Positions 4,467 to 63,981 of a DNA stretch of 64,000 bases are shown piece after piece; position 1 is the stretch's first letter, and every line of letters begins with the position of its first letter. The notes below the pieces were generated by a model that saw nothing but the letters and a program-made list of their open reading frames with translations, did not search any database and was not told where the DNA came from. This DNA is from an uncultured Gammaproteobacteria bacterium (lineage in GTDB: Bacteria; Patescibacteriota; Microgenomatia; Levybacterales; UBA12049), in assembly GCA_965230895.1 (NCBI GenBank), contig OZ246394.1, positions 916,668 through 980,667 on the forward strand, written 5' to 3'. Made by a program: the position numbers and the translations under genes.

Positions 4467-5909
4467 ATGACAAATATAGAAACATCAAGACAATCAATCA
4501 GACGACCAGCAACATTGCAGGCTTTCGATTCCGCATGCAGTACAACTGAAGTTGGAAAAGTTGTCGTAGGGAACAAGCTTGCACAATCAAGCGACATTAG
4601 AAGATTAGGCAGTGAAGTTGCAAGAGGTGCAGAGGCAAATCCAACTCGAGTTGGAGAACTTTCTGAAAAAGTAAACGGCGCAGTCTATGGTGCGTTGAAA
4701 AGAATGTATGATTTAGCACCAGAAACTGAAACCGGAGACGGAGAGACTCCACAAGCCTTTTTTCAAAGACATATGGGCATTGCCGAGAGTACAGTTCGAA
4801 GATTAGCAGAGAGCGTAAATCCAAGTGACCCATTATTGGATGAGCCCCCGCATGAATTTGCATCACCAGCAGATGTTATCAAACACCTGTCGTCACCCGG
4901 TACTACGCCGGAGTCGCGAAGAGCGGTTACAACGAGATTGGCTTTTGGATTAACGTCAGCAGAAATGGAGCAACACTTTGAAGGAACAACTGAAGTCCTT
5001 CAGGAAGTTGATGGCATGATTGGATCCGCAATTATTGTTGGTCCACGCGGTTCAGGAGATATTTTTACAGTTCATGATAATAGAACCAATACTCTTGCAC
5101 GAGCAGCGATTACATTGCAAGCATTGTTTGAAGAACCTTTGGATCCTGATGTACACGTTAAGCAACATGATCTCAATGGAGATTTCCAACACATAGGTCA
5201 AACTGAGGATCAAACTGTTGGTTTGGTTGCTGTACGATCACGAATTAAATCGGGAGAGACTGCTTTATTAAAAACCGTTCGAGAAGCAATTTTGAGAACA
5301 GAAAAAGCAGATGAAGATACTACTGAAGCAGGCAATTTAAATGCATCAGATACACAAGATAGAATTGGTTCAACATTCGTGGCTCTTGAGGCAGAGCACA
5401 GTTATGATCAGAAAGTTAGTGCATTGAGAGACAGTGTCTTGAAACAATTCCAAGCACTCTACCCCAATCTAACTGAAGAAGATTTCGTAGAAGATTCAAA
5501 GACAAACCAACGACCTGATTCTGTTGACTTTACATTCCAGAGAGTACTTGTAAATAATATTCCAGGAATTGATGGATACTATGAAATAATGTTCTTCGGA
5601 CAGGATTATTTCAACTATAAATATGCTGTTGGTGATACAGATCCTGAAACTGGTAGACCTGACGGATGTGCTCATTCATTGTATGAAGGAACAAGGTTTT
5701 TCAAAACATATAATGAGATATTTAAACCAAACAATCCTGAAGGTATTGAAAGAAATATGTATGCAGACAGAGTAGAACAGTTACTTGATGATAACAGAAT
5801 CGATACCGCCGATCTGAAAAAGAAATATGAGGAGCAGCAAGAAGGGGCGAGTTCTGAAGTATTTGTGAGAAGACTCCCAAATACTGGAGTCGTATTTAGT
5901 ACGGTTTAA
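4467..5909 (+). CDS. Hypothetical acidic soluble protein (480 aa), no recognisable domain
   Basis: Long clean ORF with slightly higher GC than its neighbours. It is preceded by an attenuator-like hairpin and U-run. Confidence 0.5.
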   Translation: MTNIETSRQSIRRPATLQAFDSACSTTEVGKVVVGNKLAQSSDIRRLGSEVARGAEANPTRVGELSEKVNGAVYGALKRMYDLAPETETGDGETPQAFFQRHMGIAESTVRRLAESVNPSDPLLDEPPHEFASPADVIKHLSSPGTTPESRRAVTTRLAFGLTSAEMEQHFEGTTEVLQEVDGMIGSAIIVGPRGSGDIFTVHDNRTNTLARAAITLQALFEEPLDPDVHVKQHDLNGDFQHIGQTEDQTVGLVAVRSRIKSGETALLKTVREAILRTEKADEDTTEAGNLNASDTQDRIGSTFVALEAEHSYDQKVSALRDSVLKQFQALYPNLTEEDFVEDSKTNQRPDSVDFTFQRVLVNNIPGIDGYYEIMFFGQDYFNYKYAVGDTDPETGRPDGCAHSLYEGTRFFKTYNEIFKPNNPEGIERNMYADRVEQLLDDNRIDTADLKKKYEEQQEGASSEVFVRRLPNTGVVFSTV

Positions 5910-7576
5910 TTTGGCAAAATTAAATCTCTAATTTTTAATTGTAATTTTGTATTCCCGTTCCATGTGTTTTCATCGAGAACATATGCAATAGCAATCTTTT
6001 GCCCGACTTTAAGTTCTGCAGCCAATTCACCCATTCCAAAGGCAATTGCCTCAAATGATTTACCATTTTGAGAAACCATAAGCTTGAGATGATTTGCTTC
6101 TTTTCCAAGTACTCTTATATTTTCGACAGTAACTTCTCTACTGGCAAAGACCGGCTCAGGATTTGCCATACCAAATGGCGCAAGTGTTTGAATCTTTTCA
6201 TATAGTTCCTCATCGAGTAGATCCAAAGATAATTCTAAATCAATCTTTAAGCTTCTCGTTAAGATTTCCTCATCCAATAGATCAAGTGATGCTTCTTCTA
6301 AAAGCGTTTGTAACTCTTCAAATTTTGCTGTCTCAATTGTAAAGCCTGCAGCCATAGGATGCCCACCAACGTTTACAAAATGTTCTTCGTGCAATCTAAG
6401 AAACTCAATAATATTAAATCCACTTACAGACCGAGCAGATCCTTTACTATGTGTCTCACCAATCGAAAGGACAATTGAAGGACGATAGAATGATTCAACT
6501 AATTTGCCTGCAACCAATCCAATGACACCTTCTTTATACGTTTCATGTCCAACTATTAATATATGTTTTGGAGCATCAAATGAATTCACATGCATGATCG
6601 CATGCTCTGCTGCTTCTTTTAGGAGAAATTGTCTTTCTTTATTTGTGAGTTCTAATTGTGAAGAAAGTAATGTTGCACGTTGCTTATCTTTTGTACAAAG
6701 TAACCGCAAACTATCCATAGCAGATTCGATCCTTCCAGCAGCATTAAGACGAGGCCCGATGATATAACCAATTTCATAGACACCTATTGCCTCTTGGTTG
6801 ATTCCTGATTGTGTAAAGAGAGCGACTAAACCTATCCTTTTTGTTCGACGAAGTTTTTCCAAGCCATGCATTACAATAGTTCTATTTGCACCAGTCAGCG
6901 GTACTAAGTCAGCAACTGTCCCCAATGCAGCAAGTTCAAGGTGCTCATCGGATTCAGCATTGAAACCACCGTATTGTTTTCGAAGTTCTTTAGACAAAAG
7001 ATATGCCACCCCTGCACCACACAAATTTGTTGTATGAACGATAGCATGCGCATCAGGCTTTGTTTCACCAACAGCATGATGATCAGTGATAATAACATCA
7101 ATTCCGGCTTGATTTGCAAACTGCACAGCTTCATGAGCAACGATTCCATTATCAACTGTTATGATAAGTTTTATATCTTTAATCTTTTCTTGTACGTTAG
7201 TAATTCCTTTAAGTGAAAGGCCATATCCTTCATCAGATCTATTTGGTATGTAGGGTAAGCACTTAGCTCCGATATCATGAAGTGTTTCCCAAAGGATTGC
7301 ACTTCCAGTAATACCATCAACATCGTAATCACCAAACACGACAATCTGTTCTTTACTTTCAATTGCTTTTGCAATTCTTTTAATTGCGGTTTGTAGCGCT
7401 TTCTCATCAAGTCCAACTACCGAAGGTGTCACATCTTCCATTTTTGGATGAAGAAAAGTATCAATATCTTTCTTGGTTGTAATTCCGCGATTATTAAGGA
7501 GTAATTTTATAATAATCTCGATATCAAGCTTCTGTATTTTGTCAGAAACAAACGTCCATTTTTTCTTTGCTGGCAT
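5906..7576 (-). CDS. recJ: Single-stranded-DNA-specific exonuclease RecJ (DHH/DHHA1)
   Basis: DHH motif ITDHHA, VDGITGSAIL, GGGH-like GGHPMAAGF (DHHA1), and a C-terminal OB fold. Confidence 0.85.
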   Translation of the reverse strand: MPAKKKWTFVSDKIQKLDIEIIIKLLLNNRGITTKKDIDTFLHPKMEDVTPSVVGLDEKALQTAIKRIAKAIESKEQIVVFGDYDVDGITGSAILWETLHDIGAKCLPYIPNRSDEGYGLSLKGITNVQEKIKDIKLIITVDNGIVAHEAVQFANQAGIDVIITDHHAVGETKPDAHAIVHTTNLCGAGVAYLLSKELRKQYGGFNAESDEHLELAALGTVADLVPLTGANRTIVMHGLEKLRRTKRIGLVALFTQSGINQEAIGVYEIGYIIGPRLNAAGRIESAMDSLRLLCTKDKQRATLLSSQLELTNKERQFLLKEAAEHAIMHVNSFDAPKHILIVGHETYKEGVIGLVAGKLVESFYRPSIVLSIGETHSKGSARSVSGFNIIEFLRLHEEHFVNVGGHPMAAGFTIETAKFEELQTLLEEASLDLLDEEILTRSLKIDLELSLDLLDEELYEKIQTLAPFGMANPEPVFASREVTVENIRVLGKEANHLKLMVSQNGKSFEAIAFGMGELAAELKVGQKIAIAYVLDENTWNGNTKLQLKIRDLILPN

Positions 7577-7593
7577 GGTATAATTTTAACAGC

Positions 7594-8997
7594 ATGAAGC
7601 AAGTTGTGCCAGAAGAAATTAAAAAAATATATGAACAATTTCGCGGTGCTGGTTTTCGCTTATATCTCGTCGGTGGATCGGTCCGCAATATACTGATCTA
7701 CAAAGAAAATGCCCTTCAAAATATCAAAGATTGGGATATGACAACTGATGCAACACCTGAACAAATGCTCGAGCTATTTCCCAATGCCTTTTATGATAAT
7801 GCATTTGGAACGGTAGGTATTCCAGTTAAAAGCTTGCTTGAGACAGAACATCCTGGCGTAGTAGAAATTACGACCTTCCGTACTGAACGCGGTTATTCAG
7901 ACAGAAGACATCCAAGTGAAGTCACATGGGGAAAAACAATTGAAGAAGATCTTGCACGCCGTGATTTTACAATGAATGCAATCGCTATGGAATTTAGTGG
8001 TGATACAGCAGAGATTGATACGGAACAATTAATTGATTTATATAACGGAGCAGAAGACATCCAAGCAAAAATCATTAGGACTGTTGGCGATCCAATGGAG
8101 CGATTTAAGGAAGATGCGTTGCGTCTCATGAGAGCTATCCGTTTTGCATCTCAACTCGGATTCCAAATTGAAGCGACAACATTAAAAGCAATAACTGAGG
8201 ATGCTCCGCTACTTGCAAGTATTGCACGAGAAAGAGTTCGAGATGAGCTGATGAAAGTTCTTGCAAGTGAATATCCTTACGAAGGAATTATGCTCTTAAG
8301 AAATACTGGACTGTTAGAACAAATTCTTCCAGAACTTCTTGAAGGCATTGGAGTCTCACAAGCGCGCCCAGGAAGACACCACAAAGACGATGTCTTTACA
8401 CATAATGTTCTTTCACTAAAACATTGTAGCTCAACCGATCCAATTGTTCGATTTGCAACTTTGATCCATGATATTGGCAAACCCCGTGTCGCTTCCGCTG
8501 ATGAAGATGGTTTTGTCATCTTTCACAATCATGAGATTGTTGGAGCAAAAATCGCTTATGAAATTTGCGATAGATTACGCTTTTCCAAAAAGAATAAAGA
8601 GAAAGTTGTAAAACTTATACGGTGGCATATGTTTACCGTTGACGAACATATAACCGATAGCGCGATCAGAAGATTTATCAGAAGAATTGGCAATGAAAAT
8701 GTCAAAGATATGATGGATTTGCGCGTGGGAGATAGACTCGGTGGAGGGACACAAACAGCTGAAAGTTGGAGATTAAAATTATTCAAAAAACGAGTTGAAG
8801 AGCAATTGGCTCCTGCTCCTTTCTCTATAAATGATATGGCTATTGACGGGAATGACATTATGAAAGAACTAGACATTAAACCAGGAAGACATATCGGAGA
8901 ACTTTTGCAAAAACTATTTGAAGAGGTTGATGAAGATTTGAATAATAACACTCGTGAATATTTACTCAAGCGGGTAAAGGAAATATATCAAAAATAA
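7594..8997 (+). CDS. cca: CCA-adding tRNA nucleotidyltransferase with HD domain
   Basis: Pol-beta NTase head LYLVGGSVRN...DWDMTT, and an HD motif LIHDIGKP in the C-terminal half. The track ORF begins at TTG 7567; ATG 7594 is preferred because it avoids overlapping the recJ start. Confidence 0.8.
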   Translation: MKQVVPEEIKKIYEQFRGAGFRLYLVGGSVRNILIYKENALQNIKDWDMTTDATPEQMLELFPNAFYDNAFGTVGIPVKSLLETEHPGVVEITTFRTERGYSDRRHPSEVTWGKTIEEDLARRDFTMNAIAMEFSGDTAEIDTEQLIDLYNGAEDIQAKIIRTVGDPMERFKEDALRLMRAIRFASQLGFQIEATTLKAITEDAPLLASIARERVRDELMKVLASEYPYEGIMLLRNTGLLEQILPELLEGIGVSQARPGRHHKDDVFTHNVLSLKHCSSTDPIVRFATLIHDIGKPRVASADEDGFVIFHNHEIVGAKIAYEICDRLRFSKKNKEKVVKLIRWHMFTVDEHITDSAIRRFIRRIGNENVKDMMDLRVGDRLGGGTQTAESWRLKLFKKRVEEQLAPAPFSINDMAIDGNDIMKELDIKPGRHIGELLQKLFEEVDEDLNNNTREYLLKRVKEIYQK

Positions 8998-14105: not shown

Positions 14106-15497
14106 TTAGTCTTTTTTATAGAAAATTTGTAACAGTGTACGTGTGACAAAAATTGCTGAGAACAATGAAACAATGATACCAAGTGCAAGGGTAAAAGCAA
14201 ACCCACGAACCACACCTGTTCCAAAGTAGAACAGTACAGAACTCGTAATCAAACTTGCCATGTTAGAGTCTCGAATCGAAAGCCATGCTCGCTCAAATCC
14301 CATTTCAATTGCTGCTTTGTTGGATCGACCGCGACGCTGTTCTTCTTTCATTCTTTCAAAGATAAGAATGTTTGCATCAACCGCAATACCAACAGAAAGG
14401 ATAAATCCAGCAATACCTGCAAGTGTTAATGTAACTGGGATTAATCTAAACAATGCAAGCAAGATGAGTGAATAAACTGCGAGAGCAATTGAAGCAATAA
14501 AACCAAGACGTCCATAAAGAACTGTCATAAAGATGACCACTACAACGAAGCCAATTAATCCGGCAACAAGACTTTTCTGGACTGATTCTTGACCCAATGT
14601 CGCTCCAATTGCTTGTTGCTGGAGAACATTAAGAGAAACAGGGAGCGCACCAGCATTTAATTGAATTTGTAAATTGTTCGCAGTCTGCGTATTAAATTCG
14701 CCAGTGATTACGGCACTACCACCAAAGATCGGTTCATTAACCCGTGGTGCTTCAATAAGTTGATCATCAAGAGCGATTGCGATAATTTTCCCGACATTTC
14801 GTTCTGTAATATCACCAAATTTTTTCGCTCCATCTGTTGTAAATTGGAGTTCTACCTGGGGTTTCCCTGTATTTGGATCAAAAACGACTGATGCTTTCTT
14901 AAGATCTTTTCCATCAAGTTCTGTTTGCTTAGCTGTTGGTCCAAGAAGTTGAGGAATACCAAGTGGTTTTCCTTGAGCTGCTAAAGCAGCCGCCTCACTT
15001 GCTGTTTCCGCTGACCCTGTTGCAAGAGGTTCTCCTTCTTCCCAAAATGTTAATTTCGCTGTTTGTCCAACCAATTGGACAGCCTGATTAACATCTGTAA
15101 CTCCTGGAATTTCGACTAAGATACGGTATTCATTTCCTGCCTTAGAAGTTTGCACTAAGGGTTCAGAAACTCCAAGGAAGTTGATACGTTTTTCAATGAC
15201 TTCCTTCGCTGAATTTAAGGCATTATCGCGCTCTGCTGTCGGAACATCTTTCATATCCGCACGCAAAGTAATACTTGTTCCTCCTTGCAAATCTAAACCA
15301 CGCTTGAATGAAAGATCCCGTCCAATATTTTGTAACAAAGCAATTCCGTGATAATCATATTTAACTGGGTAAGATTGGCCGGTAAATGGATTTGGGATTG
15401 AGAAATCGACTTTAAGAGGAGTAGCAAGATTAATAACAATACTGACGATTGTTACAAAGAGGATTAAAAAGAATGCCATGCGTGGGCTCTTAATCAT
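14106..15497 (-). CDS. secD: Protein translocase subunit SecD
   Basis: N-terminal TM, large periplasmic P1 domain, C-terminal six-TM SecDF domain (GLIGFVVVVIFM...GIAVDANILIFERMKEE). Confidence 0.85.
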   Translation of the reverse strand: MIKSPRMAFFLILFVTIVSIVINLATPLKVDFSIPNPFTGQSYPVKYDYHGIALLQNIGRDLSFKRGLDLQGGTSITLRADMKDVPTAERDNALNSAKEVIEKRINFLGVSEPLVQTSKAGNEYRILVEIPGVTDVNQAVQLVGQTAKLTFWEEGEPLATGSAETASEAAALAAQGKPLGIPQLLGPTAKQTELDGKDLKKASVVFDPNTGKPQVELQFTTDGAKKFGDITERNVGKIIAIALDDQLIEAPRVNEPIFGGSAVITGEFNTQTANNLQIQLNAGALPVSLNVLQQQAIGATLGQESVQKSLVAGLIGFVVVVIFMTVLYGRLGFIASIALAVYSLILLALFRLIPVTLTLAGIAGFILSVGIAVDANILIFERMKEEQRRGRSNKAAIEMGFERAWLSIRDSNMASLITSSVLFYFGTGVVRGFAFTLALGIIVSLFSAIFVTRTLLQIFYKKD

Positions 15498-52537: not shown

Positions 52538-54490
52538 ATGATAAAGCTACAACGTTCTACTAATAATCCTATCCTCAGTCCTGATCCAAATAATCCTTGG
52601 GAACATGATGGAGCGTTCAATGGATGTGTTGTTTTCCATGATGGCGTCTACCATATGGTATATCGTGCTCTTTCTTCAGAAAAAAGACAGAATGGTATCA
52701 GCATGCGTGTCTCCACTGTTGGGTATGCCACAAGCACAGATGGTGTGACCTTTGGTGAGCATCGGCTCCTTTTTGAGCCAACAGAAGATTGGGAAATTTA
52801 CGGTGTTGAAGATCCAAGAATTACCTTCCATAATGGCAAATTCTATATTTTCTATACAGCACTTTCTGTCTATCCATTTGCTGCATATGGTATTAAAACT
52901 GCGGTTGCGATAACGACTGACTTTAAAACTTTTGAAAAGCATCCAGTCAGCACATTCAATGCAAAGGCTCAGGCGCTTTTTCCTGAAAAGATTAATGGCA
53001 AATTCGCTTCTCTGATAACCATTAATACAGATATGCCACCAGCAAAGATTTGTGTAGCAACATTTGATCATGAATCAGATATTTGGTCACCGTATTATTG
53101 GACAGAATGGTATGACAACGTAAACCAACACGCACTTCATTTACTCAGAGATTTACAGGACCAGATAGAACTTGGTGCACCACCTGTCAAAACTCCAGAC
53201 GGATGGTTTGTCATTTATTCATATATTGGGAATTATCTTTCAAATAATAAGAACTTCGGAATTGAAGCGGTTCTTCTAGACCTCGATGATCCAAGAAAAG
53301 TTATTGCAAGAACTGAACATTCACTACTTGATCCTGAAGCAGAATATGAGTTGCATGGAGATGTCCCAAATATCGTTTTTCCTTCAGGCGCTTTAGTAAA
53401 AGATGATGAGCTATTTGTCTATTATGGTGCTGCTGATACTCGAGTCGGTCTCGCATCTGCAAAACTTTCAGACATCATTGCAGAGATGAAACCAGCAGAT
53501 TCAGCAAAGAACCTATCGTTGTATGCAGAAGAAAAGCACGCGAATGCTTCCAAGACGAAATTTCAAAGATATGAAGGAAATCCGATTATTGTTCCTGCAC
53601 TAGAATCTGATTGGCAGGCATTTGGAACATTTAATCCGGCTGTCGTCTATGAAGATAATAAATTCCATATTGTCTATCGTGCTCAAGCAGTTAATGGAAC
53701 TTCTGTCATGGGGTATGCAATGAGTAAAGATGGCTTTACTATCGATGAAAATTTAGAAGAGCCGATTTACTTTCCCCGTGAAGCATTTGAGCAAAAAATT
53801 CATGAGACCGGGAATTCAGGCTGCGAAGACCCTCGAGTAACTAAAATTGATGATCGCTATTATATGCTCTACACAGCTTATGATGGTGTTCATCCACCAA
53901 GAGTTGCGATGTCTTCGATTGCTGTGGATGACTTTTTAAAAAAGCAATGGAATTGGTCACCTGCACAACTTATTTCACCACCGGAGGTCGACGATAAAGA
54001 TGCATGTATCGTCAAGGGCAAAGCAGCAGGAACGTATTTGGCGTTCCACCGATTAGGTTATGATATATGGCTGGATATTAGAAAGGATCTTGTTTTTAAT
54101 GAATCTGATTGGCTCAAAGGAGAAGTCATTGCGCATCCTCGAGCTGATCATTGGGATAATGTAAAACTTGGTATCAGCGCTCCACCAATCGAAACAGAGA
54201 AAGGCTGGCTCCTTCTTTATCATGGCGTGTCAGAACCAGGAAACGTTTATAAAGTTGGTGCTATGCTTTTAGATTTCGACGATCCTAGAAAAGTTCTAGC
54301 AAGGACCGATGATCCTGTATTTGAGCCGGAAACAGAATACGAGAAAGTTGGGGTTGTACCAAATGTCGTTTTCCCTTGCGGAGCTGTGAATGTAAATGGA
54401 ACTATATTTATGTATTATGGGGGCGCTGATAAAGTAATTGGTGTTGCGACAATGAAACTTGATGATCTAATGAAACTTCTTAAATATTAA
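52538..54490 (+). CDS. Tandem double GH130 glycoside phosphorylase (two complete GH130 domains)
   Basis: Domain 1: NPILSPDP...VEDPRITFHNGKFYIFYTA...GAPPVKTPDGW...YYGAADT. Domain 2: NPIIVPAL...CEDPRVTKIDDRYYMLYTA...ISAPPIETEKGWLLLYHG...YYGGADK. Confidence 0.8.
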   Translation: MIKLQRSTNNPILSPDPNNPWEHDGAFNGCVVFHDGVYHMVYRALSSEKRQNGISMRVSTVGYATSTDGVTFGEHRLLFEPTEDWEIYGVEDPRITFHNGKFYIFYTALSVYPFAAYGIKTAVAITTDFKTFEKHPVSTFNAKAQALFPEKINGKFASLITINTDMPPAKICVATFDHESDIWSPYYWTEWYDNVNQHALHLLRDLQDQIELGAPPVKTPDGWFVIYSYIGNYLSNNKNFGIEAVLLDLDDPRKVIARTEHSLLDPEAEYELHGDVPNIVFPSGALVKDDELFVYYGAADTRVGLASAKLSDIIAEMKPADSAKNLSLYAEEKHANASKTKFQRYEGNPIIVPALESDWQAFGTFNPAVVYEDNKFHIVYRAQAVNGTSVMGYAMSKDGFTIDENLEEPIYFPREAFEQKIHETGNSGCEDPRVTKIDDRYYMLYTAYDGVHPPRVAMSSIAVDDFLKKQWNWSPAQLISPPEVDDKDACIVKGKAAGTYLAFHRLGYDIWLDIRKDLVFNESDWLKGEVIAHPRADHWDNVKLGISAPPIETEKGWLLLYHGVSEPGNVYKVGAMLLDFDDPRKVLARTDDPVFEPETEYEKVGVVPNVVFPCGAVNVNGTIFMYYGGADKVIGVATMKLDDLMKLLKY

Positions 54491-56154
54491 CCTCCGTAGT
54501 GTTCATATGAGTTATTAATAACAGGTAAATACGCCTTTTCGAAATAATCCCGAAGCATCCTTGTTGCGCTAAATTGGTTAAGGATCAAATCTCTCCCATC
54601 CCGTTGCATTGTTTGCCACTTTGATTTATCTTGATCGTAATAAGCAGGAACGACTTGTCTTTCCAATGTATCCAAAAGACTTGTTTGGATTGTTTCGCTA
54701 TCGAAAGACCAACCAATTTTATTGATATCTATTTCATCCATCCATCCGTCTTTCGTACTCAATGGTAAAACGCCATTAAGACTCGCTTTCATACCACTTG
54801 TCCCACACGCTTCCGAACCAACGACTGGAGTATTAAGCCAAACATCAGCACCACTAATCATCAATTTCGCTAACGTCTTATTATAATCAGCAAGATAGAC
54901 GACATTGCCTGCCAAACGATTCTGTAGTAATTGCTGCAATTGATTTATTAAATCACGTCCTTCATCATCAGCTTGATGAGAGATACCTGCCATAACAACC
55001 CGGACAGGCCGATCAGCATTTGTTGCCAAAGCGACAAATCGTTCGAGATCACTGAACAACGCCAACGGCCGTTTGTAACGGACCATCCTTCTCGCCCACC
55101 CAAGGAGCAACTCATTCTCTCCCCATTGCTGCCCAGTTTCTTTAGCAATATATGATAATAGTGCTTTTTTACTGGTATCATGATATGCCATGCTTTCCCA
55201 ACTTGGCGTATGGATACCATTCGTTACTGGCTCCCAAACAAAATCCGGCCATAGCTTATTTGCTTCTTTCACATGTAATTTACTCACACCATTGATCTTT
55301 CCAGCCAATCGCATCGCAAAAACTGCAAGATAAAAATCATGCGAATCTTTAATCGTTCCTAAATCGGAAATCTTTGTCACAGGAATTTCAAGTTGGCTTG
55401 CATACTTACTGAGCATCATATGGAGTAATTCATTACTGAAGATATCATTTCCCGCTGGAACCAAAGTATGATTGGTGAAGACAACATGATGTGAAGCTAA
55501 TTTTGATGCTTCGTCAAATGATATTTTTCTTTTCTGTATCTCATGACGGATAATTTCAAGAACAAGAAGCGCTGAATGCCCTTCATTCATGTGATAAAGG
55601 GACGGTTGTACGCCAAGCAATTCGAGCAATCGAAACCCTCCAATACCCAGAATGATTTCTTGTTTCAGACGAACCTGCTTATCTGAATCATAGAGTTTAA
55701 ACCCAATTGCTCGATCCTCAGGAGAATTTTCAGGGACATTCGTATCGAGAAGATATAATGGAATTGAATGATGCTGCCATATCCAACTTTTTACTAACAC
55801 TTCATGGTCCCCTACTGGAACAGAGATAATTAAAGGCTTTTGATTTTTATCCAAAACTGGCTTCAAACCTTGATTCTCAGGAGTTGGCAGGATGTGCTCA
55901 TTGTCCTTGTCATGATGCGGATCAAATCCATATCGACTCTGATAGTAAAGACCAACCGAAACAGCCGGGATATGACGATCTGCCAATTCTTTTATAAAAT
56001 CACCTGCAAGGATACCAAGCCCACCTGCATAGGTTGGAATCTTATCTGAGAGTGCGTATTCAATACTAAAATAGGCTAATGGTTTTTTCTGAAGAAGCTG
56101 ATAAGGTTTGGTCTTACGAAAATCCTCGAACCAAGCTGCATGTTCATTTGCCAT
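54487..56154 (-). CDS. glgP: Alpha-glucan (glycogen/maltodextrin) phosphorylase, short GT35 form
   Basis: PLP-lysine region EACGTSGMKA, 555 aa, N-terminal AYFSIEYAL...GGLGILAGD. Confidence 0.8.
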   Translation of the reverse strand: MANEHAAWFEDFRKTKPYQLLQKKPLAYFSIEYALSDKIPTYAGGLGILAGDFIKELADRHIPAVSVGLYYQSRYGFDPHHDKDNEHILPTPENQGLKPVLDKNQKPLIISVPVGDHEVLVKSWIWQHHSIPLYLLDTNVPENSPEDRAIGFKLYDSDKQVRLKQEIILGIGGFRLLELLGVQPSLYHMNEGHSALLVLEIIRHEIQKRKISFDEASKLASHHVVFTNHTLVPAGNDIFSNELLHMMLSKYASQLEIPVTKISDLGTIKDSHDFYLAVFAMRLAGKINGVSKLHVKEANKLWPDFVWEPVTNGIHTPSWESMAYHDTSKKALLSYIAKETGQQWGENELLLGWARRMVRYKRPLALFSDLERFVALATNADRPVRVVMAGISHQADDEGRDLINQLQQLLQNRLAGNVVYLADYNKTLAKLMISGADVWLNTPVVGSEACGTSGMKASLNGVLPLSTKDGWMDEIDINKIGWSFDSETIQTSLLDTLERQVVPAYYDQDKSKWQTMQRDGRDLILNQFSATRMLRDYFEKAYLPVINNSYEHYGG

Positions 56155-56163
56155 TCCTCTATT

Positions 56164-57702
56164 TTAAGCTAATTGTCTCGGAGATGCTACTGTTGCGGTA
56201 ATTTCTTTTCTTTTTGCGGCGACCCTTTTATACCAACTATCATACTGTGTGGCAGCATGACTCCATGAGAAGTCGCTTTCAAGACAATTCTTCACAAGCA
56301 ATTTCCATAGTTTTGGATGATTATAAATAATAAGCGCCTGCATGATCGTACCGTACAATGACCACGCATCTTTATTTTTGAACGAGAAGCCATTTCCTTC
56401 TTTCGTTGCTGGATTATAATCGGTAATGATATCACTTAATCCACCAGTTCTTCTGATGAGAGGGACACATCCGTATCGCAATGCTTCAAGAGCAATAATA
56501 CCACCCGGTTCAAAAAGACTTGGAATTAGCATCATATCTGCTCCAGCAAAGATCTTTTTAGGCAGGCGGAAATCAGGACGCAAATGAAGTCCAACTTGCT
56601 CAGGAAATGTCTTCTGCAGCACGGTCAGCTCAAGTCGATAGCGTTCTTCGCCACTTCCAAGAAATACGATTTGGACATCAGGACGCTCGCTCAATAAATG
56701 AGGTAATGCTTCCAGAACAATATCTAATCCTTTCTGCTTAACCATTCTTCCACTAAGAGCTAATAATGGCCGGTGAACATCTGGTGTAAGCCCAAAAAGC
56801 TTTTGGAGTTCTCTTTTATTCTCTTCTCTAGCATGTACAAAAGAATTTGTATTGAAATTCTTTTTGATAAACTTATCTGTATGGGGATTAAATTTTTCTG
56901 TGTCCAAACCATTAAGAATACCGGTAACTCTATCTTTGACTGATTGCAGCACTTCATCCAATCCTTCTGCATATTCAGGAGTCATTACTTCAACTGCATG
57001 CGTTGGACTAACAGTATTGATAGCATCAGCAAAAAGCAAACCTCGTTTCAATGGATTCTGTAATTGTAAAGATGGCGCTGTCAAAGGAGCTGGCAAAATC
57101 TCTCCACTATCAAATTCTTCTTTCGGACAATAGCGAAAGTCATAGTTTCCTTGTAACGAAAAATTATGCACCGTAAATACTATTGGAGTCTTGCGAAAAA
57201 GCTCTTTGTAGCGTGGGTGTCTACGCGCTAAATCAATAAAATACCCAGTATGCCAATCATGTGCATGTATAACATCTGGTTTCCACTCATTATGATTAGT
57301 TTGATTTTGTAACATCCACTCAAGACAGGCTTTAGAAAGTAATGCAAAGCGTGTGTGATCGTCTTTGTATCCATAGACATTTGCGCGAAGTTCATAGTAT
57401 TCTCTATTCTCTAAGAAATATGCTTGAATTTTTGAGCCCTTATCCCGATAGGATTTTACATTACAGATAATCGATTTATTTTCCTGATCGTTGTCATCAG
57501 GAACGATTAAATCAGGATACTCCATTTGTAATTTCCAGTTTCCTTCAATTGTGGTTTCATCCATTGCCCCATATTTAGGAGTAAAAATACGGACATCATG
57601 CCCGAGCTTACGGAGTTCTTTTGGGAGAAAATACATGAACTGACTCAAACCACCAACTGAAACAAATGGAGCAACTTCAGCAGCAAGAAAGAGAATATTC
57701 AT
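56164..57702 (-). CDS. glgA: Glycogen (starch) synthase, GT5
   Basis: MNILFLAAEVAPFVSVGGLSQF (K-x-GGL motif region) and a GT-B C-terminal domain. Confidence 0.85.
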   Translation of the reverse strand: MNILFLAAEVAPFVSVGGLSQFMYFLPKELRKLGHDVRIFTPKYGAMDETTIEGNWKLQMEYPDLIVPDDNDQENKSIICNVKSYRDKGSKIQAYFLENREYYELRANVYGYKDDHTRFALLSKACLEWMLQNQTNHNEWKPDVIHAHDWHTGYFIDLARRHPRYKELFRKTPIVFTVHNFSLQGNYDFRYCPKEEFDSGEILPAPLTAPSLQLQNPLKRGLLFADAINTVSPTHAVEVMTPEYAEGLDEVLQSVKDRVTGILNGLDTEKFNPHTDKFIKKNFNTNSFVHAREENKRELQKLFGLTPDVHRPLLALSGRMVKQKGLDIVLEALPHLLSERPDVQIVFLGSGEERYRLELTVLQKTFPEQVGLHLRPDFRLPKKIFAGADMMLIPSLFEPGGIIALEALRYGCVPLIRRTGGLSDIITDYNPATKEGNGFSFKNKDAWSLYGTIMQALIIYNHPKLWKLLVKNCLESDFSWSHAATQYDSWYKRVAAKRKEITATVASPRQLA

Positions 57703-57772: not shown

Positions 57773-58339
57773 TTAAAGCGGCTTCTTCTTGAGTTTTAGT
57801 ACATAGCCTAAATATGTTCCTGCTGGATGAATAATAATCCACATAAAAAGAATTAAAATGTACTGATACCATTCCAATGGAACATAAAACCATGTAAATA
57901 AAATTCCACCAAGAATAAAATCTATTTGATCGAATGGGACCCAACTTCTTCCAGGTTGAATATTTTGTCGTCGTTTAAAGAAACTCTTCACTGCATCTCC
58001 CGCTAATGCACCAAAACCTAGCAAAAATCCTAAAAGAATTGGATCTACTTCATTATAATTTATAGGAAGTATACTTCTCTGCCACTCTATATTGTTATAG
58101 AAAAAGATCTGTAGATAAACTCCTATGATTGCAACGAGTGTTCCAAATATAAAACCGCGAATTGTCTTATGACTTCCAAGAATCCTTTTCCCCTGGAACT
58201 TTAAGCCAAAATCTACAGGATAATTATATGGTTTCAAAAAGAAAATTTTCCCAGAACCAAATGCCACGACGTTTGCGAGTCCTGCGGGTCCAAAAAACCA
58301 AAATGCAAAGAAGATTTCTTTAAGAAGATGCTCAACCAT
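57773..58339 (-). CDS. CTP-transferase-like membrane protein resembling CDP-archaeol synthase (CarS/DUF46), distantly related to CdsA
   Basis: Five-TM 188-aa protein with PAGLANVVAFGSGKIF and DFGLKFQGKRILGSHKTIRGFIFG, which I recall as DUF46/CarS signatures. Assignment is from memory of the motif, not a search. Confidence 0.4.
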   Translation of the reverse strand: MVEHLLKEIFFAFWFFGPAGLANVVAFGSGKIFFLKPYNYPVDFGLKFQGKRILGSHKTIRGFIFGTLVAIIGVYLQIFFYNNIEWQRSILPINYNEVDPILLGFLLGFGALAGDAVKSFFKRRQNIQPGRSWVPFDQIDFILGGILFTWFYVPLEWYQYILILFMWIIIHPAGTYLGYVLKLKKKPL

Positions 58340-59000
58340 TTGTTAATATTATCTTATTTTTAATACGATTTACCAATGGGCAAAGTAATGTATAAATTGG
58401 CGCTCTTTTCCGAGACAATTCTGGATTTACCAAGAGATGTTTGAGAGATCTTCGTGTAGGCATTTCTGAAACCATACTAAATGTTTTTCCCATCCCCATA
58501 ATGCAATGAGAATCACTACTTGCTGCTTGTGATTTTTGATAGAGATTTGCGAATGCGAGAGCCTCCATAGGTTTTCCGCGGACTTGCCCACGGCCATTAA
58601 AGACTTCAACAATATCAATATCATCTTTAATTTTATCCAAACTTGATTGCTGTAATCCTTTTCTGAAAATCTCGTATGGATGAGGTATATAAACAAGCGC
58701 ATCCTGTTGTTTTATTCGATTAACTGTTTCGACAGCATCAAGTCCAGCAGGAATTGTTTCTTTGAGGAAAAGCCCGATGATCTCACCTTCACTTGTTGTT
58801 ATTTCCTCACCAATGATAATTTTATCCCCATGTTTTTGCTGCATTATCCTCGCAAAACTCGTTTCGTTATGGTCTGTGATCGCAATACAATCAAGCCGTT
58901 CTGTCTCCAGTAAGCGCTCATATTCCTCAGCCGTAATACCACCATCATGTGATATGATTGAATGTGAATGCAGGTCAACTTTATAATGCGTTTTATCCAT
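58332..59000 (-). CDS. PHP-domain phosphoesterase (histidinol-phosphatase-like metal-dependent phosphatase)
   Basis: DLHSHSIISHDGG, ITDHNE, HPYE, SDSH: the four PHP metal-ligand blocks. Start chosen at MDKTHYKVDLHSHS (59000); the track ORF extends to 59132. Confidence 0.7.
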   Translation of the reverse strand: MDKTHYKVDLHSHSIISHDGGITAEEYERLLETERLDCIAITDHNETSFARIMQQKHGDKIIIGEEITTSEGEIIGLFLKETIPAGLDAVETVNRIKQQDALVYIPHPYEIFRKGLQQSSLDKIKDDIDIVEVFNGRGQVRGKPMEALAFANLYQKSQAASSDSHCIMGMGKTFSMVSEMPTRRSLKHLLVNPELSRKRAPIYTLLCPLVNRIKNKIILTNG

Positions 59001-59586
59001 GTTAAGTAAAAGCAAACAATCAGTAGAGAAAGTTTTGGAGCCAATAGTCAAACCTTTGTCTAAGGTAAATCCGAACGTGCTGACTCTCTTAGGTAGTATA
59101 CCACCTCTTCTTTTCTTTGTCGCTATCATCAATCACATCTATTGGCTAGCAATTCTTGCTTTTATAGGCAATCTTTTTGATCTTATCGACGGGATGGTAG
59201 CAAGGAAATATAAAAAAGTAACAGCTTTTGGAGGATTTCTTGATTCAACACTTGATCGGGTCGGAGATTTCTTAATAATTACTTCATTCTCTTTTGCAGG
59301 AATTGTCCGATGGGAGTTAACAATACCATTATTACTTTTTGCCTTCTTGACTAGTTATATCCGAAGCCGAGGAGAGTTGGCAAAACCGTCAGTAAGTTTT
59401 GCAGTTGGAATTGTTGAAAGAACAGAGCGGCTCATTGTTGTGGTCCTTGCTCTCGTTTTGCACATGTTTTTTCCAAACTATTCTTTCGCAGGATTTAATG
59501 TGATGGAGGTCAGTTTCTTATTCTTAGGAATTTTATCTTTCTATACAGTTTTACAACGCGTTGCCCATGCGCATAAAAATCTTTAA
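58999..59586 (+). CDS. Small CDP-alcohol phosphatidyltransferase (PIP/AIP-synthase or DIPPS-size class)
   Basis: DLIDGMVARK...GGFLDSTLDRVGD = D-G-x2-A-R-x8-G-x3-D-x3-D. 195 aa, about 6 TM. Confidence 0.75.
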   Translation: MLSKSKQSVEKVLEPIVKPLSKVNPNVLTLLGSIPPLLFFVAIINHIYWLAILAFIGNLFDLIDGMVARKYKKVTAFGGFLDSTLDRVGDFLIITSFSFAGIVRWELTIPLLLFAFLTSYIRSRGELAKPSVSFAVGIVERTERLIVVVLALVLHMFFPNYSFAGFNVMEVSFLFLGILSFYTVLQRVAHAHKNL

Positions 59587-62421: not shown

Positions 62422-63147
62422 TTATTTTGCGAACATTTCTTGAGCTTTTGCGTAATCTTCATGTGTGTCTATCTCAACCCATTTAAGTCCTGTTATATCA
62501 ACTGCATACATTGGACAACCTTTCGCAACTAAGGTTGTGTAACTATCATCATAATACTCTTGCCAATTAGCCTGATCGTTCATTAATGCTTCAAGTTCTG
62601 CAAACAATACTTTCGCAGCATCTGCACTAATCTTTTCTATCCCAATTGATTCACCAGTTGATGCATGTGGATCAAGTTTTTTGCCAACTTGTAATACCTT
62701 GTTATTTTCGTCTGTTATAACTTTTACTTCCTCTGCTTCTAAATTAATATTTTTGTCGATACAGAGTGCACTTGGAACTGGTGCATCTATCAACTTTTTT
62801 AAAACTTCTGTTTCGAAAACAACATCAGCATCAAATTTAATAAAACTATCATCTCCTACAAATTCTTTTGTGAGGAGCAATGAATAACCGGTATTTGTCG
62901 CTTCAAATTTCTCATTATGCATGAATGTTACTTTGAGTTGAGGGAACTTTTCAGCAATGAATGCTTCTACTTGTTCTGCTCGATAACCTGTAACAATTCC
63001 AACTTCAGTCATTCCAACTTCTACCACTGCATTAAGCATGCGCTCAATAATGGAAATTCCTACGACGGGAATAAATGATTTTGGTTTATCATCGGTAAGT
63101 GGTCTAATTCTTGATCCCACTCCAGCTGCTAATAATATTGCTTTCAT
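62422..63147 (-). CDS. Sugar/alcohol-phosphate nucleotidyltransferase (NTP_transferase fold; IPCT- or LicC-like cytidylyltransferase candidate)
   Basis: MKAILLAAGVGSRIRPLTDDKPK signature. 241 aa. It is co-transcribed downstream of a CDP-alcohol phosphatidyltransferase. Confidence 0.6.
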   Translation of the reverse strand: MKAILLAAGVGSRIRPLTDDKPKSFIPVVGISIIERMLNAVVEVGMTEVGIVTGYRAEQVEAFIAEKFPQLKVTFMHNEKFEATNTGYSLLLTKEFVGDDSFIKFDADVVFETEVLKKLIDAPVPSALCIDKNINLEAEEVKVITDENNKVLQVGKKLDPHASTGESIGIEKISADAAKVLFAELEALMNDQANWQEYYDDSYTTLVAKGCPMYAVDITGLKWVEIDTHEDYAKAQEMFAK

Positions 63148-63162
63148 AATACGTATTATACC

Positions 63163-63981
63163 TTATTTTCTCATTGGCATGAGTAATTCTTTAGATCTAT
63201 TCTTTAACTGAGTTCCACGTTCAAATACTCTCCATAATGCCCATATGGTTTGGCTTATTGCCAAAATCCAAAGTACAAGATCGAGACGGTTGCATAATGC
63301 TCCAATCGCAACAAATATTGCAAATTCTGCTTCATCGACAATAAGTAATGTTCTATTCTTTATCCATGAGAATCTCAATGCTTCACTTATATTTTTTGCT
63401 TTTTTTGCATATTGTACCTCCATTGCATGTTCGAGCTTTTGTCTTACCTTTGCAGATTCATCAAAATATTTTGGATTATTTGAAAACGCACTAAACATAG
63501 ATTCCAATTTAATATAATAGCGATATTGGAACATGAAACATGAGATAAAACCAAGAAGCAAATAAGTAATATTATTTGTTTGGAGATAGACCGCAAGACC
63601 TGTAAAAAACGTAATAAGGAAAATCTTTAAGATATCCAAAACTTTGTCCATATAATCTCCCATGATTGAATACTTCTTTGTGATTCGAGCCAATTGTCCA
63701 TCGACATCATCACCGACATATCCGAAGAAAATCATCAAACTACCAAGTACTAAATGGTATGGGAAATTTAAAACGAGGAAAATACATCCTAATGCAAATA
63801 ACGCGAAAGAAACAAGCGTAACATGATTTGGCGTTAAGAATGAGATTTTTGAAAGAGGTTTAACAATAATCCTTGCTAAAGGATATCCAATACGATCTCC
63901 CCAATTACTGTAGTATGTTGATTTTATGACACGGATTGCTGCGGTTGATTTTACAGTTTTAGTCGCTGAAGCTTTCTTCAT
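63163..63981 (-). CDS. CDP-alcohol phosphatidyltransferase-family membrane protein (second copy, 272 aa)
   Basis: GYVGDDVDGQLARITKKYSIMGDYMDKVLDILK = D-x2-D-G-x2-A-R...G-x3-D-x3-D. An AGGAGG SD is visible on the minus strand at 63987-63995. Confidence 0.75.
   Translation of the reverse strand: MKKASATKTVKSTAAIRVIKSTYYSNWGDRIGYPLARIIVKPLSKISFLTPNHVTLVSFALFALGCIFLVLNFPYHLVLGSLMIFFGYVGDDVDGQLARITKKYSIMGDYMDKVLDILKIFLITFFTGLAVYLQTNNITYLLLGFISCFMFQYRYYIKLESMFSAFSNNPKYFDESAKVRQKLEHAMEVQYAKKAKNISEALRFSWIKNRTLLIVDEAEFAIFVAIGALCNRLDLVLWILAISQTIWALWRVFERGTQLKNRSKELLMPMRK

Follow-up and report, generated by a model that had tools for sequence, protein, structure and literature searches.

A small PHP-type phosphoesterase encoded head to head with a PIP-synthase-like transferase as candidate phosphatidylinositol-phosphate phosphatase in Patescibacteria and Chloroflexi

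Bacteria and archaea make phosphatidylinositol (PI) in two steps. For the second, the conversion of phosphatidylinositol phosphate (PIP) to PI, the phosphatase has been a gap for 15 years, with only a PgpA-family enzyme of Bacteroides assigned to it. A 64,000-nt stretch of DNA (contig OZ246394.1 of GenBank assembly GCA_965230895.1, positions 916668-980667; hereafter "the window") raises the question of whether a small phosphoesterase of the PHP superfamily could fill this place in other lineages, since its gene lies head to head with that of a CDP-alcohol phosphotransferase resembling PIP synthase (PIPS). The original prediction had named the PHP protein as a candidate PIP phosphatase, and this interpretation gains support from the conserved gene order in genomes of the Candidate Phyla Radiation (CPR), from operons of Chloroflexi and from a fusion of a PimA-like glycosyltransferase with a PHP domain. 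Based on this genomic context, from which the activity is deduced, the PHP protein is probably a PIP phosphatase.

A paper of 2015 and a review of 2022 both still listed the phosphatase as unidentified (PMC4634129, PMC9385802). With BT_1525, a PgpA-family protein of Bacteroides thetaiotaomicron, a PIP phosphatase was assigned in 2022 from the accumulation of PIP in a deletion mutant (Heaver et al., PMC9246714). The remark in the original prediction that this enzyme has been hard to identify is partly out of date.

The gene cluster and its products

The genes on which the argument rests lie side by side in the window:

57773-58339, minus strand: cytidylyltransferase of the CDP-archaeol synthase family (CarS-like), 188 aa; 8-nt overlap of its start with the stop of the PHP gene
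58332-59000, minus strand: PHP/PHP_C-type metal-dependent phosphoesterase, 222 aa, proposed PIP phosphatase on the basis of fold, motifs, synteny and fusion
58998-59001, no strand: CATG common to both divergent start codons; intergenic spacer zero, start codons overlapping by 2 nt
58999-59586, plus strand: CDP-alcohol phosphotransferase of the PIPS or archaetidylinositol-phosphate synthase (AIPS) type, 195 aa; Pfam CDP-OH_P_transf, 63.5 bits
59620-60714, minus strand: myo-inositol-1-phosphate synthase (MIPS), 364 aa; 33-nt gap to the convergent transferase gene

The sequence letters bear out the earlier claim that the two ATG codons overlap by 2 nt within a CATG palindrome. Read directly, positions 58990-59001 are gttttatccATG and the wider start region is TTTATAATGCGTTTTATCCATGTTAAG; the plus-strand ATG at 58999-59001 opens the 195-aa frame of the transferase, which ends at 59586, and on the other strand, 58998-59000 read as the ATG of the 222-aa PHP frame, which ends at 58332. 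In the mechanical list of open reading frames, the PHP frame runs up to a TTG at 59132 and comprises 266 aa. Initiation at this TTG, which had been raised as an objection, is disfavoured: the ATG at 59000 is preferable as start because 116 of the 120 best PHP homologues have a length of 214-232 aa, because the N-termini of homologues align with MDKTHYKVDLH of the PHP protein (alignment of 24 homologues) and because the additional 44 codons would lie antisense within the transferase gene.

Membership of the protein in the PHP superfamily rests on fold and motifs, because its Pfam score lies just below threshold (PF02811 / PF13263, 25.4 bits against a gathering cut-off of 26.4); precomputed PF02811 or PF13263 matches exist for many close homologues. 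Likewise, the NCBIfam model of CehA/McbA metallohydrolases (NF038032) gives 53.3 bits, below its cut-off of 80, and 85.8 bits for the relative in locus L160. The AlphaFold model (pLDDT 92.8) is a confident PHP barrel of the distorted (beta/alpha)7 type, for which Foldseek returned 3e38, 2anu and 7ug9 at E-values of 1e-10 to 1e-11 and a TM score of about 0.65. Across 24 homologues, eleven residues (D9, H11, H13, D19, D43, H44, E65, E66, H107, D163 and H165) do not vary, and the metal-ligand motifs HxH, DH, Glu, His and DxH also align with RNase AM and the Chloroflexi subfamily described below. Pfam and NCBIfam scans of the PHP protein yielded PHP-type families only and no homology to PgpA. A transfer of function from solved structures was rejected, as sequence and fold searches led only to uncharacterised PHP proteins, RNase AM, PsfC and PHP domains of polymerases.

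A profile search among 1.8 billion representatives recovered 482 clusters at E < 1e-30 and 3155 at E < 1e-10, and nearly all members of this wider family have a basic C-terminal tail. In all three PHP subfamilies, the last 22 residues are net positive and the remainder is net negative. Such a basic C-terminal helix would fit docking on an anionic membrane; for a role as membrane anchor we take it as weak support, its charge being consistently positive but its hydrophobic moment moderate.

The transferase scores best on the NCBIfam models of AIPS (153.5 bits, cut-off 180) and PIPS (107.4 bits, cut-off 170), reaches 34 bits on PgsA, and has its best PDB matches in the PIP synthases 5d91 and 6h53. 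In an alignment with the M. tuberculosis and Renibacterium enzymes (MtPIPS, RsPIPS), all eight positions of the signature D1xxD2G1xxAR...G2xxxD3xxxD4 are kept. The equivalents of MtPIPS R155, R195, S132 and K135 are R, R, S and R, the last replacing lysine; R155 and R195 bind the phosphate of inositol phosphate, as known from the Renibacterium and M. tuberculosis enzymes (PMC4634129). We infer an inositol-phosphate specificity of the transferase from these features and from scores that are its best matches yet lie below the equivalog cut-offs.

The CarS-like protein matches Pfam PF01864 with 98.8 bits against 22 and NCBIfam PRK04032 with 130.1 bits against a cut-off of 148, and is proposed to make the CDP-activated lipid donor. 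MIPS matches Pfam Inos-1-P_synth (PF01658) with 122 bits and TIGR03450 over residues 6-358 with 485 bits (E 1e-145), a score below the cut-off of 638 of that actinobacterial equivalog.

Gene neighbourhoods in CPR genomes and beyond

Going by the names of its homologues, the organism of the window belongs to Levybacteria, within CPR/Patescibacteria. A scan of one genome per species provided a set of 80 CPR loci in Levybacteria and Saccharibacteria, which were annotated by tblastn and by hidden Markov models built from the window proteins. A PIPS-like transferase gene lies directly upstream of the PHP gene in 76 of the 79 informative loci (75 counted by script and L078 taken by hand from the tblastn table). 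Two gene orders occur: 33-34 loci are divergent as in the window, and 42, mostly of Saccharibacteria, are co-directional. The co-directional transferase is a different subtype (type b), 22-31% identical to that of the window and likewise keeping the arginine pair of PIPS; both subtypes score best on the AIPS/PIPS models (77-153 bits) and poorly on PgsA (20-34 bits). Since the adjacency survives this rearrangement, a functional coupling of PHP protein and transferase is suggested. The exact 2-nt overlap of start codons recurs in L009, L032 and L068 only among the CPR loci compared; in about 15 more divergent loci the two genes are 0-10 nt apart, and in the remainder 16-340 nt. The conserved trait is consequently the adjacency of the two genes and not the CATG overlap. 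A co-occurrence of PHP genes with small CDP-alcohol transferases, which the original prediction had proposed to look for, is hence strongly evident in the CPR loci as well as in the Chloroflexi operons and the fusion presented below, and a lack of conserved synteny with inositol-phosphate transferases, which would have spoken against it, was not observed.

On the other side, all 75 informative loci have a CarS-like gene that follows the 3' end of the PHP gene in the same orientation, usually with an overlap of 4-8 nt. In 18 of these 75 (among L009-L088), a gene for a lipid kinase of the DAGK_cat/YegS type is inserted between the two; the window itself contains no DAGK_cat gene. The CarS-like enzyme and the lipid kinase suggest a salvage route from diacylglycerol via phosphatidate to CDP-lipid in organisms unable to make fatty acids. 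A MIPS gene is found within 3.3 kb of the PHP gene in 13 of the 80 loci, in both gene orders.

Some further observations on the CPR loci may be recorded here. The pairing of CarS and PHP genes, often with the lipid kinase, is seen e.g., at 57773-58339 of the window and at 6666-8125 of L001. In loci of the Saccharimonadia type, a gene for a NUDIX hydrolase lies two genes from the transferase gene (L001, 2264-2806; L008, 4130-4678). The pgsA1-patA-pimA operon of M. tuberculosis also ends with a Nudix gene, Rv2609c; this likeness may be coincidence. Thirteen contigs (L009, L013, L014, L020, L024-L026, L029, L037, L043, L068, L076 and L084) show gene content and protein identities like those of Levybacteria or Saccharibacteria, and their titles ("uncultured Gammaproteobacteria", "Lysobacterales", "Acidiferrales", "Limnocylindrales", "Pristimantibacillus") are probably mislabels or the result of mis-binning.

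Apart from the CPR, a metagenome scan seeded with the MIPS of the window led to a distant PHP subfamily of Chloroflexi, here termed ChlB, which aligns with the CPR family at an hhalign probability of 99.4 and 26% identity. The ChlB operons encode a helix-turn-helix (HTH) protein, MIPS, two to three acyltransferases whose best model is that of the phosphatidylinositol mannoside (PIM) acyltransferase, the PHP protein, a family 4 glycosyltransferase (GT4), a DAO oxidoreductase and a PIPS-like transferase. The GT4 protein matches PimA of M. smegmatis over its full length with 221 bits. Three such acyl-PIM-like operons of Chloroflexi (Anaerolineae-type) stand behind an ArsR-type HTH gene:

L160, 7935-14725: acyl-PIM-like operon
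L174, 3013-10805: acyl-PIM-like operon
L175, 4117-9584: acyl-PIM-like operon

These operons appear to be complete for acyl-PIM, whereas PIM-type glycolipids are usually held to be actinobacterial.

A third setting is provided by locus L177, in which the 662-aa protein P0247 joins a PimA-like GT4 domain to a PHP domain (PimA 108 bits, next PDB family 45). The fusion gene directly follows the genes of a PIPS-like transferase (158 bits on the PIPS model) and of MIPS in a three-gene operon (4978-8989). Neither the Chloroflexi clusters nor L177 have a CarS gene, and both combine PHP with PIPS, MIPS and a PimA-like protein. As a side observation, L177 carries a second, stand-alone PHP/PHP_C paralogue (14327-15016) at a distance of 5 kb on the opposite strand. 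One genome can thus hold two members of the PHP family, which may differ in function.

Proposed pathway and competing explanations

In the window, the Chloroflexi operons and the fusion operon of L177, PHP is encoded together with PIP synthase and MIPS, and it has the PIPS-type partner in 76 of the 79 informative CPR loci. The four adjacent genes of the window would constitute a short pathway building PI. Here, MIPS would convert glucose-6-phosphate to L-myo-inositol-1-phosphate and thereby supply the acceptor, and the CarS-like enzyme would form CDP-lipid from phosphatidate and CTP, preceded in many relatives by the DAGK_cat kinase, encoded between PHP and CarS, that could phosphorylate diacylglycerol to phosphatidate. 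The 195-aa transferase would then combine CDP-lipid and inositol phosphate to PIP, from which the PHP protein, a phosphomonoesterase that is small, depends on metal and ends in a basic helix, would remove the ring phosphate to yield PI. The genes belong to these families, their catalytic motifs are intact and their linkage is conserved; what we infer is which substrate the PHP protein uses, that the lipid donor is of the diacyl and not the ether type, and in which order the steps proceed.

All three settings, i.e., CPR, Chloroflexi and L177, contain a candidate gene for every step of PI or PIM synthesis except the dephosphorylation of PIP, and the sole hydrolase among the genes is PHP. Because PIP dephosphorylation is the only step without an enzyme and PHP the only hydrolase present, this activity would be the natural assignment for the PHP protein. 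A role tied to the cytidylyltransferase, e.g., the removal of pyrophosphate, is disfavoured because the partner common to all settings is PIP synthase, usually accompanied by MIPS, and not CarS. Where PimA is fused or adjacent, mannosylation could even precede dephosphorylation. Glycosylation ahead of dephosphorylation has a parallel in sucrose and mannosylglycerate synthesis, where a synthase acts first and a phosphatase second.

Taken further, the evidence leans towards the view that small PHP/PHP_C phosphoesterases form a new family for the missing step from PIP to PI in at least two phyla, CPR/Patescibacteria and Chloroflexi. In the CPR, PHP would be one part of a salvage module leading from diacylglycerol to PI, next to a cytidylyltransferase of the CarS type and, in many cases, a lipid kinase; in Chloroflexi, it would be part of, or fused into, complete PIM-type operons. 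The reach of the family appears to be limited to some lineages, as most other PIPS-MIPS operons showed no PHP gene within reach and no link to archaeal AIP synthases emerged.

Several observations weigh against a PIP phosphatase. About 40 other PIPS-MIPS operons from non-CPR metagenomes have no PHP gene within reach. The stand-alone Chloroflexi relatives that, outside the CPR, score closest to the CPR family (ChlA, P0215-type) adjoin genes for EF-P, exonuclease VII (xseB), a formyltransferase or PrsW instead of lipid genes, which is the strongest evidence against one function for the whole family. In 40 of the 42 co-directional Saccharibacteria loci, no MIPS gene was found within 10 kb, and the acceptor in these MIPS-less loci could be another phospho-alcohol. 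Moreover, the PHP, transferase and CarS-like proteins all remain below NCBIfam equivalog or domain cut-offs, the solved structures nearest to the PHP protein are uncharacterised proteins or the nuclease RNase AM, and the hydrophobic moment of the C-terminal helix amounts to about 0.4. In the PHP-less PIPS-MIPS operons, neighbours such as an RsmI-like methylase, thymidylate kinase, ArsA and an outer-membrane protein were found and no obvious phosphatase. A link of the PHP family to archaeal AIP synthases, or an archaeal PHP partner, was likewise not detected. The idea of a uniform lipid linkage of the whole PHP family was ruled out by the housekeeping context of the ChlA genes.

The main competitor is a broader or different specificity for lipid phosphates: the PHP protein would dephosphorylate phosphatidyl-alcohol phosphates with a chief substrate other than PIP, likeliest phosphatidylglycerol phosphate (PGP), and the transferase would use glycerol-3-phosphate or another phospho-alcohol in many genomes. 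This carries most weight for the MIPS-less Saccharibacteria loci, as MIPS occurs within 10 kb in only 13 of the 80 CPR loci and in only two of the 42 co-directional Saccharibacteria loci; all transferases are below the AIPS/PIPS equivalog cut-offs and CPR genomes still need a PGP phosphatase. Nevertheless, the transferase types reach 77-153 bits on the inositol-phosphate enzymes compared to 20-34 on PgsA and keep the arginine pair of PIPS, MIPS is the next gene in the window, MIPS and PimA-like genes stand together in the Chloroflexi and L177 clusters, and in MIPS-less genomes MIPS could lie elsewhere. On the whole, we regard a PGP-type substrate as unlikely.

Slightly more doubtful still is an action on a soluble molecule of the pathway. 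The candidates would be the pyrophosphate that CarS releases, nucleotides such as cytidine monophosphate (CMP), and free inositol-1-phosphate, on which the protein would act like an inositol monophosphatase. In the CPR, the link to CarS is indeed the tightest of all (75/75 loci, usual overlap 4-8 nt), and characterised PHP enzymes, going by NCBIfam names, mostly act on soluble phosphoesters, e.g., histidinol phosphate or adenosine 3',5'-bisphosphate (pAp). However, the clusters of Chloroflexi and L177 lack CarS and keep PHP together with PIPS, MIPS and a PimA-like protein, an inositol monophosphatase would consume the very substrate needed by a PIPS-type enzyme, and a lipid substrate is suggested by the fusion, whose other half is a membrane-associated glycosyltransferase of lipids.

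We further consider it very improbable that the PHP protein serves a housekeeping function as nuclease or nucleotidase, like RNase AM or pAp phosphatase, and that its position among lipid genes is functionally meaningless. Weak NCBIfam matches to RNase RNM and 3',5'-bisphosphate nucleotidase, the presence of RNase AM among the structural neighbours and the housekeeping contexts of the ChlA relatives could be read in this way, but the RNM and nucleotidase matches cover the N-terminal metal motif only, at 19-58 bits against cut-offs of 375-400, and a linkage to PIPS in three unrelated arrangements plus a fusion is very unlikely to arise by chance.

A last alternative concerns two more genes of the window, which lie beyond MIPS:

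62422-63147, minus strand: nucleotidyltransferase resembling inositol-1-phosphate cytidylyltransferase (IPCT); 78 bits on the IPCT/di-myo-inositol-phosphate phosphate (DIPP) synthase model
63163-63981, minus strand: second CDP-alcohol transferase, 272 aa, with F at the position of PIPS R155 and a long insertion

That the PHP protein would dephosphorylate DIPP, a soluble inositol phosphodiester made by this gene pair, is hardly credible: the IPCT-like enzyme and the second transferase are encoded only 3 kb away and DIPP also needs a phosphatase, but a pair of this type stands beside PHP in just two of the 80 loci, including L010, while PHP is fixed beside the PIPS-like and CarS-like genes. In its own right, the pair at 62422-63981 resembles a CDP-inositol route, either for DIPP synthesis or as in the unconfirmed "alternative cluster" of Bacteroides/Prevotella, and the same pair is present in L010. 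If it represents such a route, the genome may hold two inositol head-group pathways flanking one MIPS gene.

Further features of the locus and relation to known systems

The start region of the transferase gene contains a promoter-like sequence:

58958-58987, plus strand: sigma-70-like TTGAAT, 18-nt spacer, TATAAT; within PHP codons 5-15 and 11 nt 5' of the transferase ATG

The TATAAT hexamer reported in the original prediction is thus present; its position is 58982-58987 instead of 58984-58989, and its distance to the ATG is 11 nt instead of 9. Together with the -35-like TTGAAT (58958-58963), it is the best sigma-70-like match (10/12) between 57600 and 60900, an interval in which promoter-like sites do not exceed shuffled sequence (12 vs. 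10.8 +/- 3.1). Read on the opposite strand, the two hexamers are codons of the PHP motif with the highest conservation, the metal-binding H-S-H-S-I, and of the preceding H-Y-K, and identical strings occur in about 15 compact divergent loci. They recur in relatives because they mirror conserved PHP codons, and coding, instead of promoter function, may account for them. A promoter for a leaderless or very-short-leader transferase mRNA is possible, its match to the consensus being confounded by the coding constraint. Any promoter at 58958-58987 would share its letters with the codons for the catalytic motif of the PHP gene on the opposite strand.

Large genes of the GH130 family (mannoside phosphorylases) flank the lipid cluster in the window (52538-57702) and in two distant relatives (L005, 8427-12369; L018, 3089-6867); in the window, they are followed by genes for alpha-glucan phosphorylase and glycogen synthase. 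A link of mannoside metabolism to inositol (manno)lipids is conceivable.

What is proposed here is, as a prediction, a new protein family for a known reaction. A PHP protein in the role of PIP phosphatase would be a non-orthologous replacement. With it, the PI pathway predicted for Saccharibacteria and Levybacteria, which as episymbionts are unable to make fatty acids and have to rebuild host lipids, would be complete, and the synthesis of PIM-like glycolipids would be indicated for Chloroflexi. Small size, apparent solubility and a simple assay make the question directly testable. Synthesis of PI and PIM has been predicted from the genome of a rhizosphere Saccharibacterium, where the dephosphorylation of PIP was left unaddressed (PMC6031116), and in the literature we covered, which is incomplete, we found no published link of a PHP protein to the dephosphorylation of PIP or PGP or to a phospholipid head group.

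The archaeal pair of CarS and AIP synthase provides the best-matching models for the cytidylyltransferase and the transferase of the window; neither protein reaches the equivalog cut-off. The host, however, is bacterial, as seen from a LysR regulator and the CPR relatives, and the DAGK_cat kinase in operons of relatives suggests diacylglycerol lipids. PgpA, PgpB and PgpC of E. coli catalyse an analogous second step after a CDP-alcohol phosphotransferase, and differ in belonging to unrelated families and in their head group.

With the mycobacterial PI/PIM operon (pgsA1, a patA-type acyltransferase gene and pimA), the Chloroflexi operons share the pathway and the genes for PIPS-, PIM-acyltransferase- and PimA-like proteins, whereas the cluster of the window has a CarS-like gene and neither PimA nor PatA. 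The mycobacterial pgsA1-patA-pimA operon is not known to contain a PHP gene.

Among PHP proteins, the fold and the HxH/DH/E/H/DxH motifs are common to HisK/HisJ, the 3',5'-bisphosphate nucleotidase of the Cv1693 type, RNase AM (TrpH/YciV), TM0559 (2anu) and BVU_3505 (3e38). The family described here has less than 25% identity to any solved structure and differs from the characterised hydrolases by its smaller size (about 220 aa), the PHP_C segment, the basic C-terminal helix and its context of lipid synthesis.

The closest functional counterpart would be BT_1525, for which the same reaction is proposed, from PIP-DAG to PI-DAG (DAG, diacylglycerol), and which is likewise clustered with PIP synthase and MIPS. 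BT_1525 belongs to the PgpA family and is backed by genetic evidence, whereas the protein of the window is a PHP/PHP_C barrel to which context assigns its probable role.

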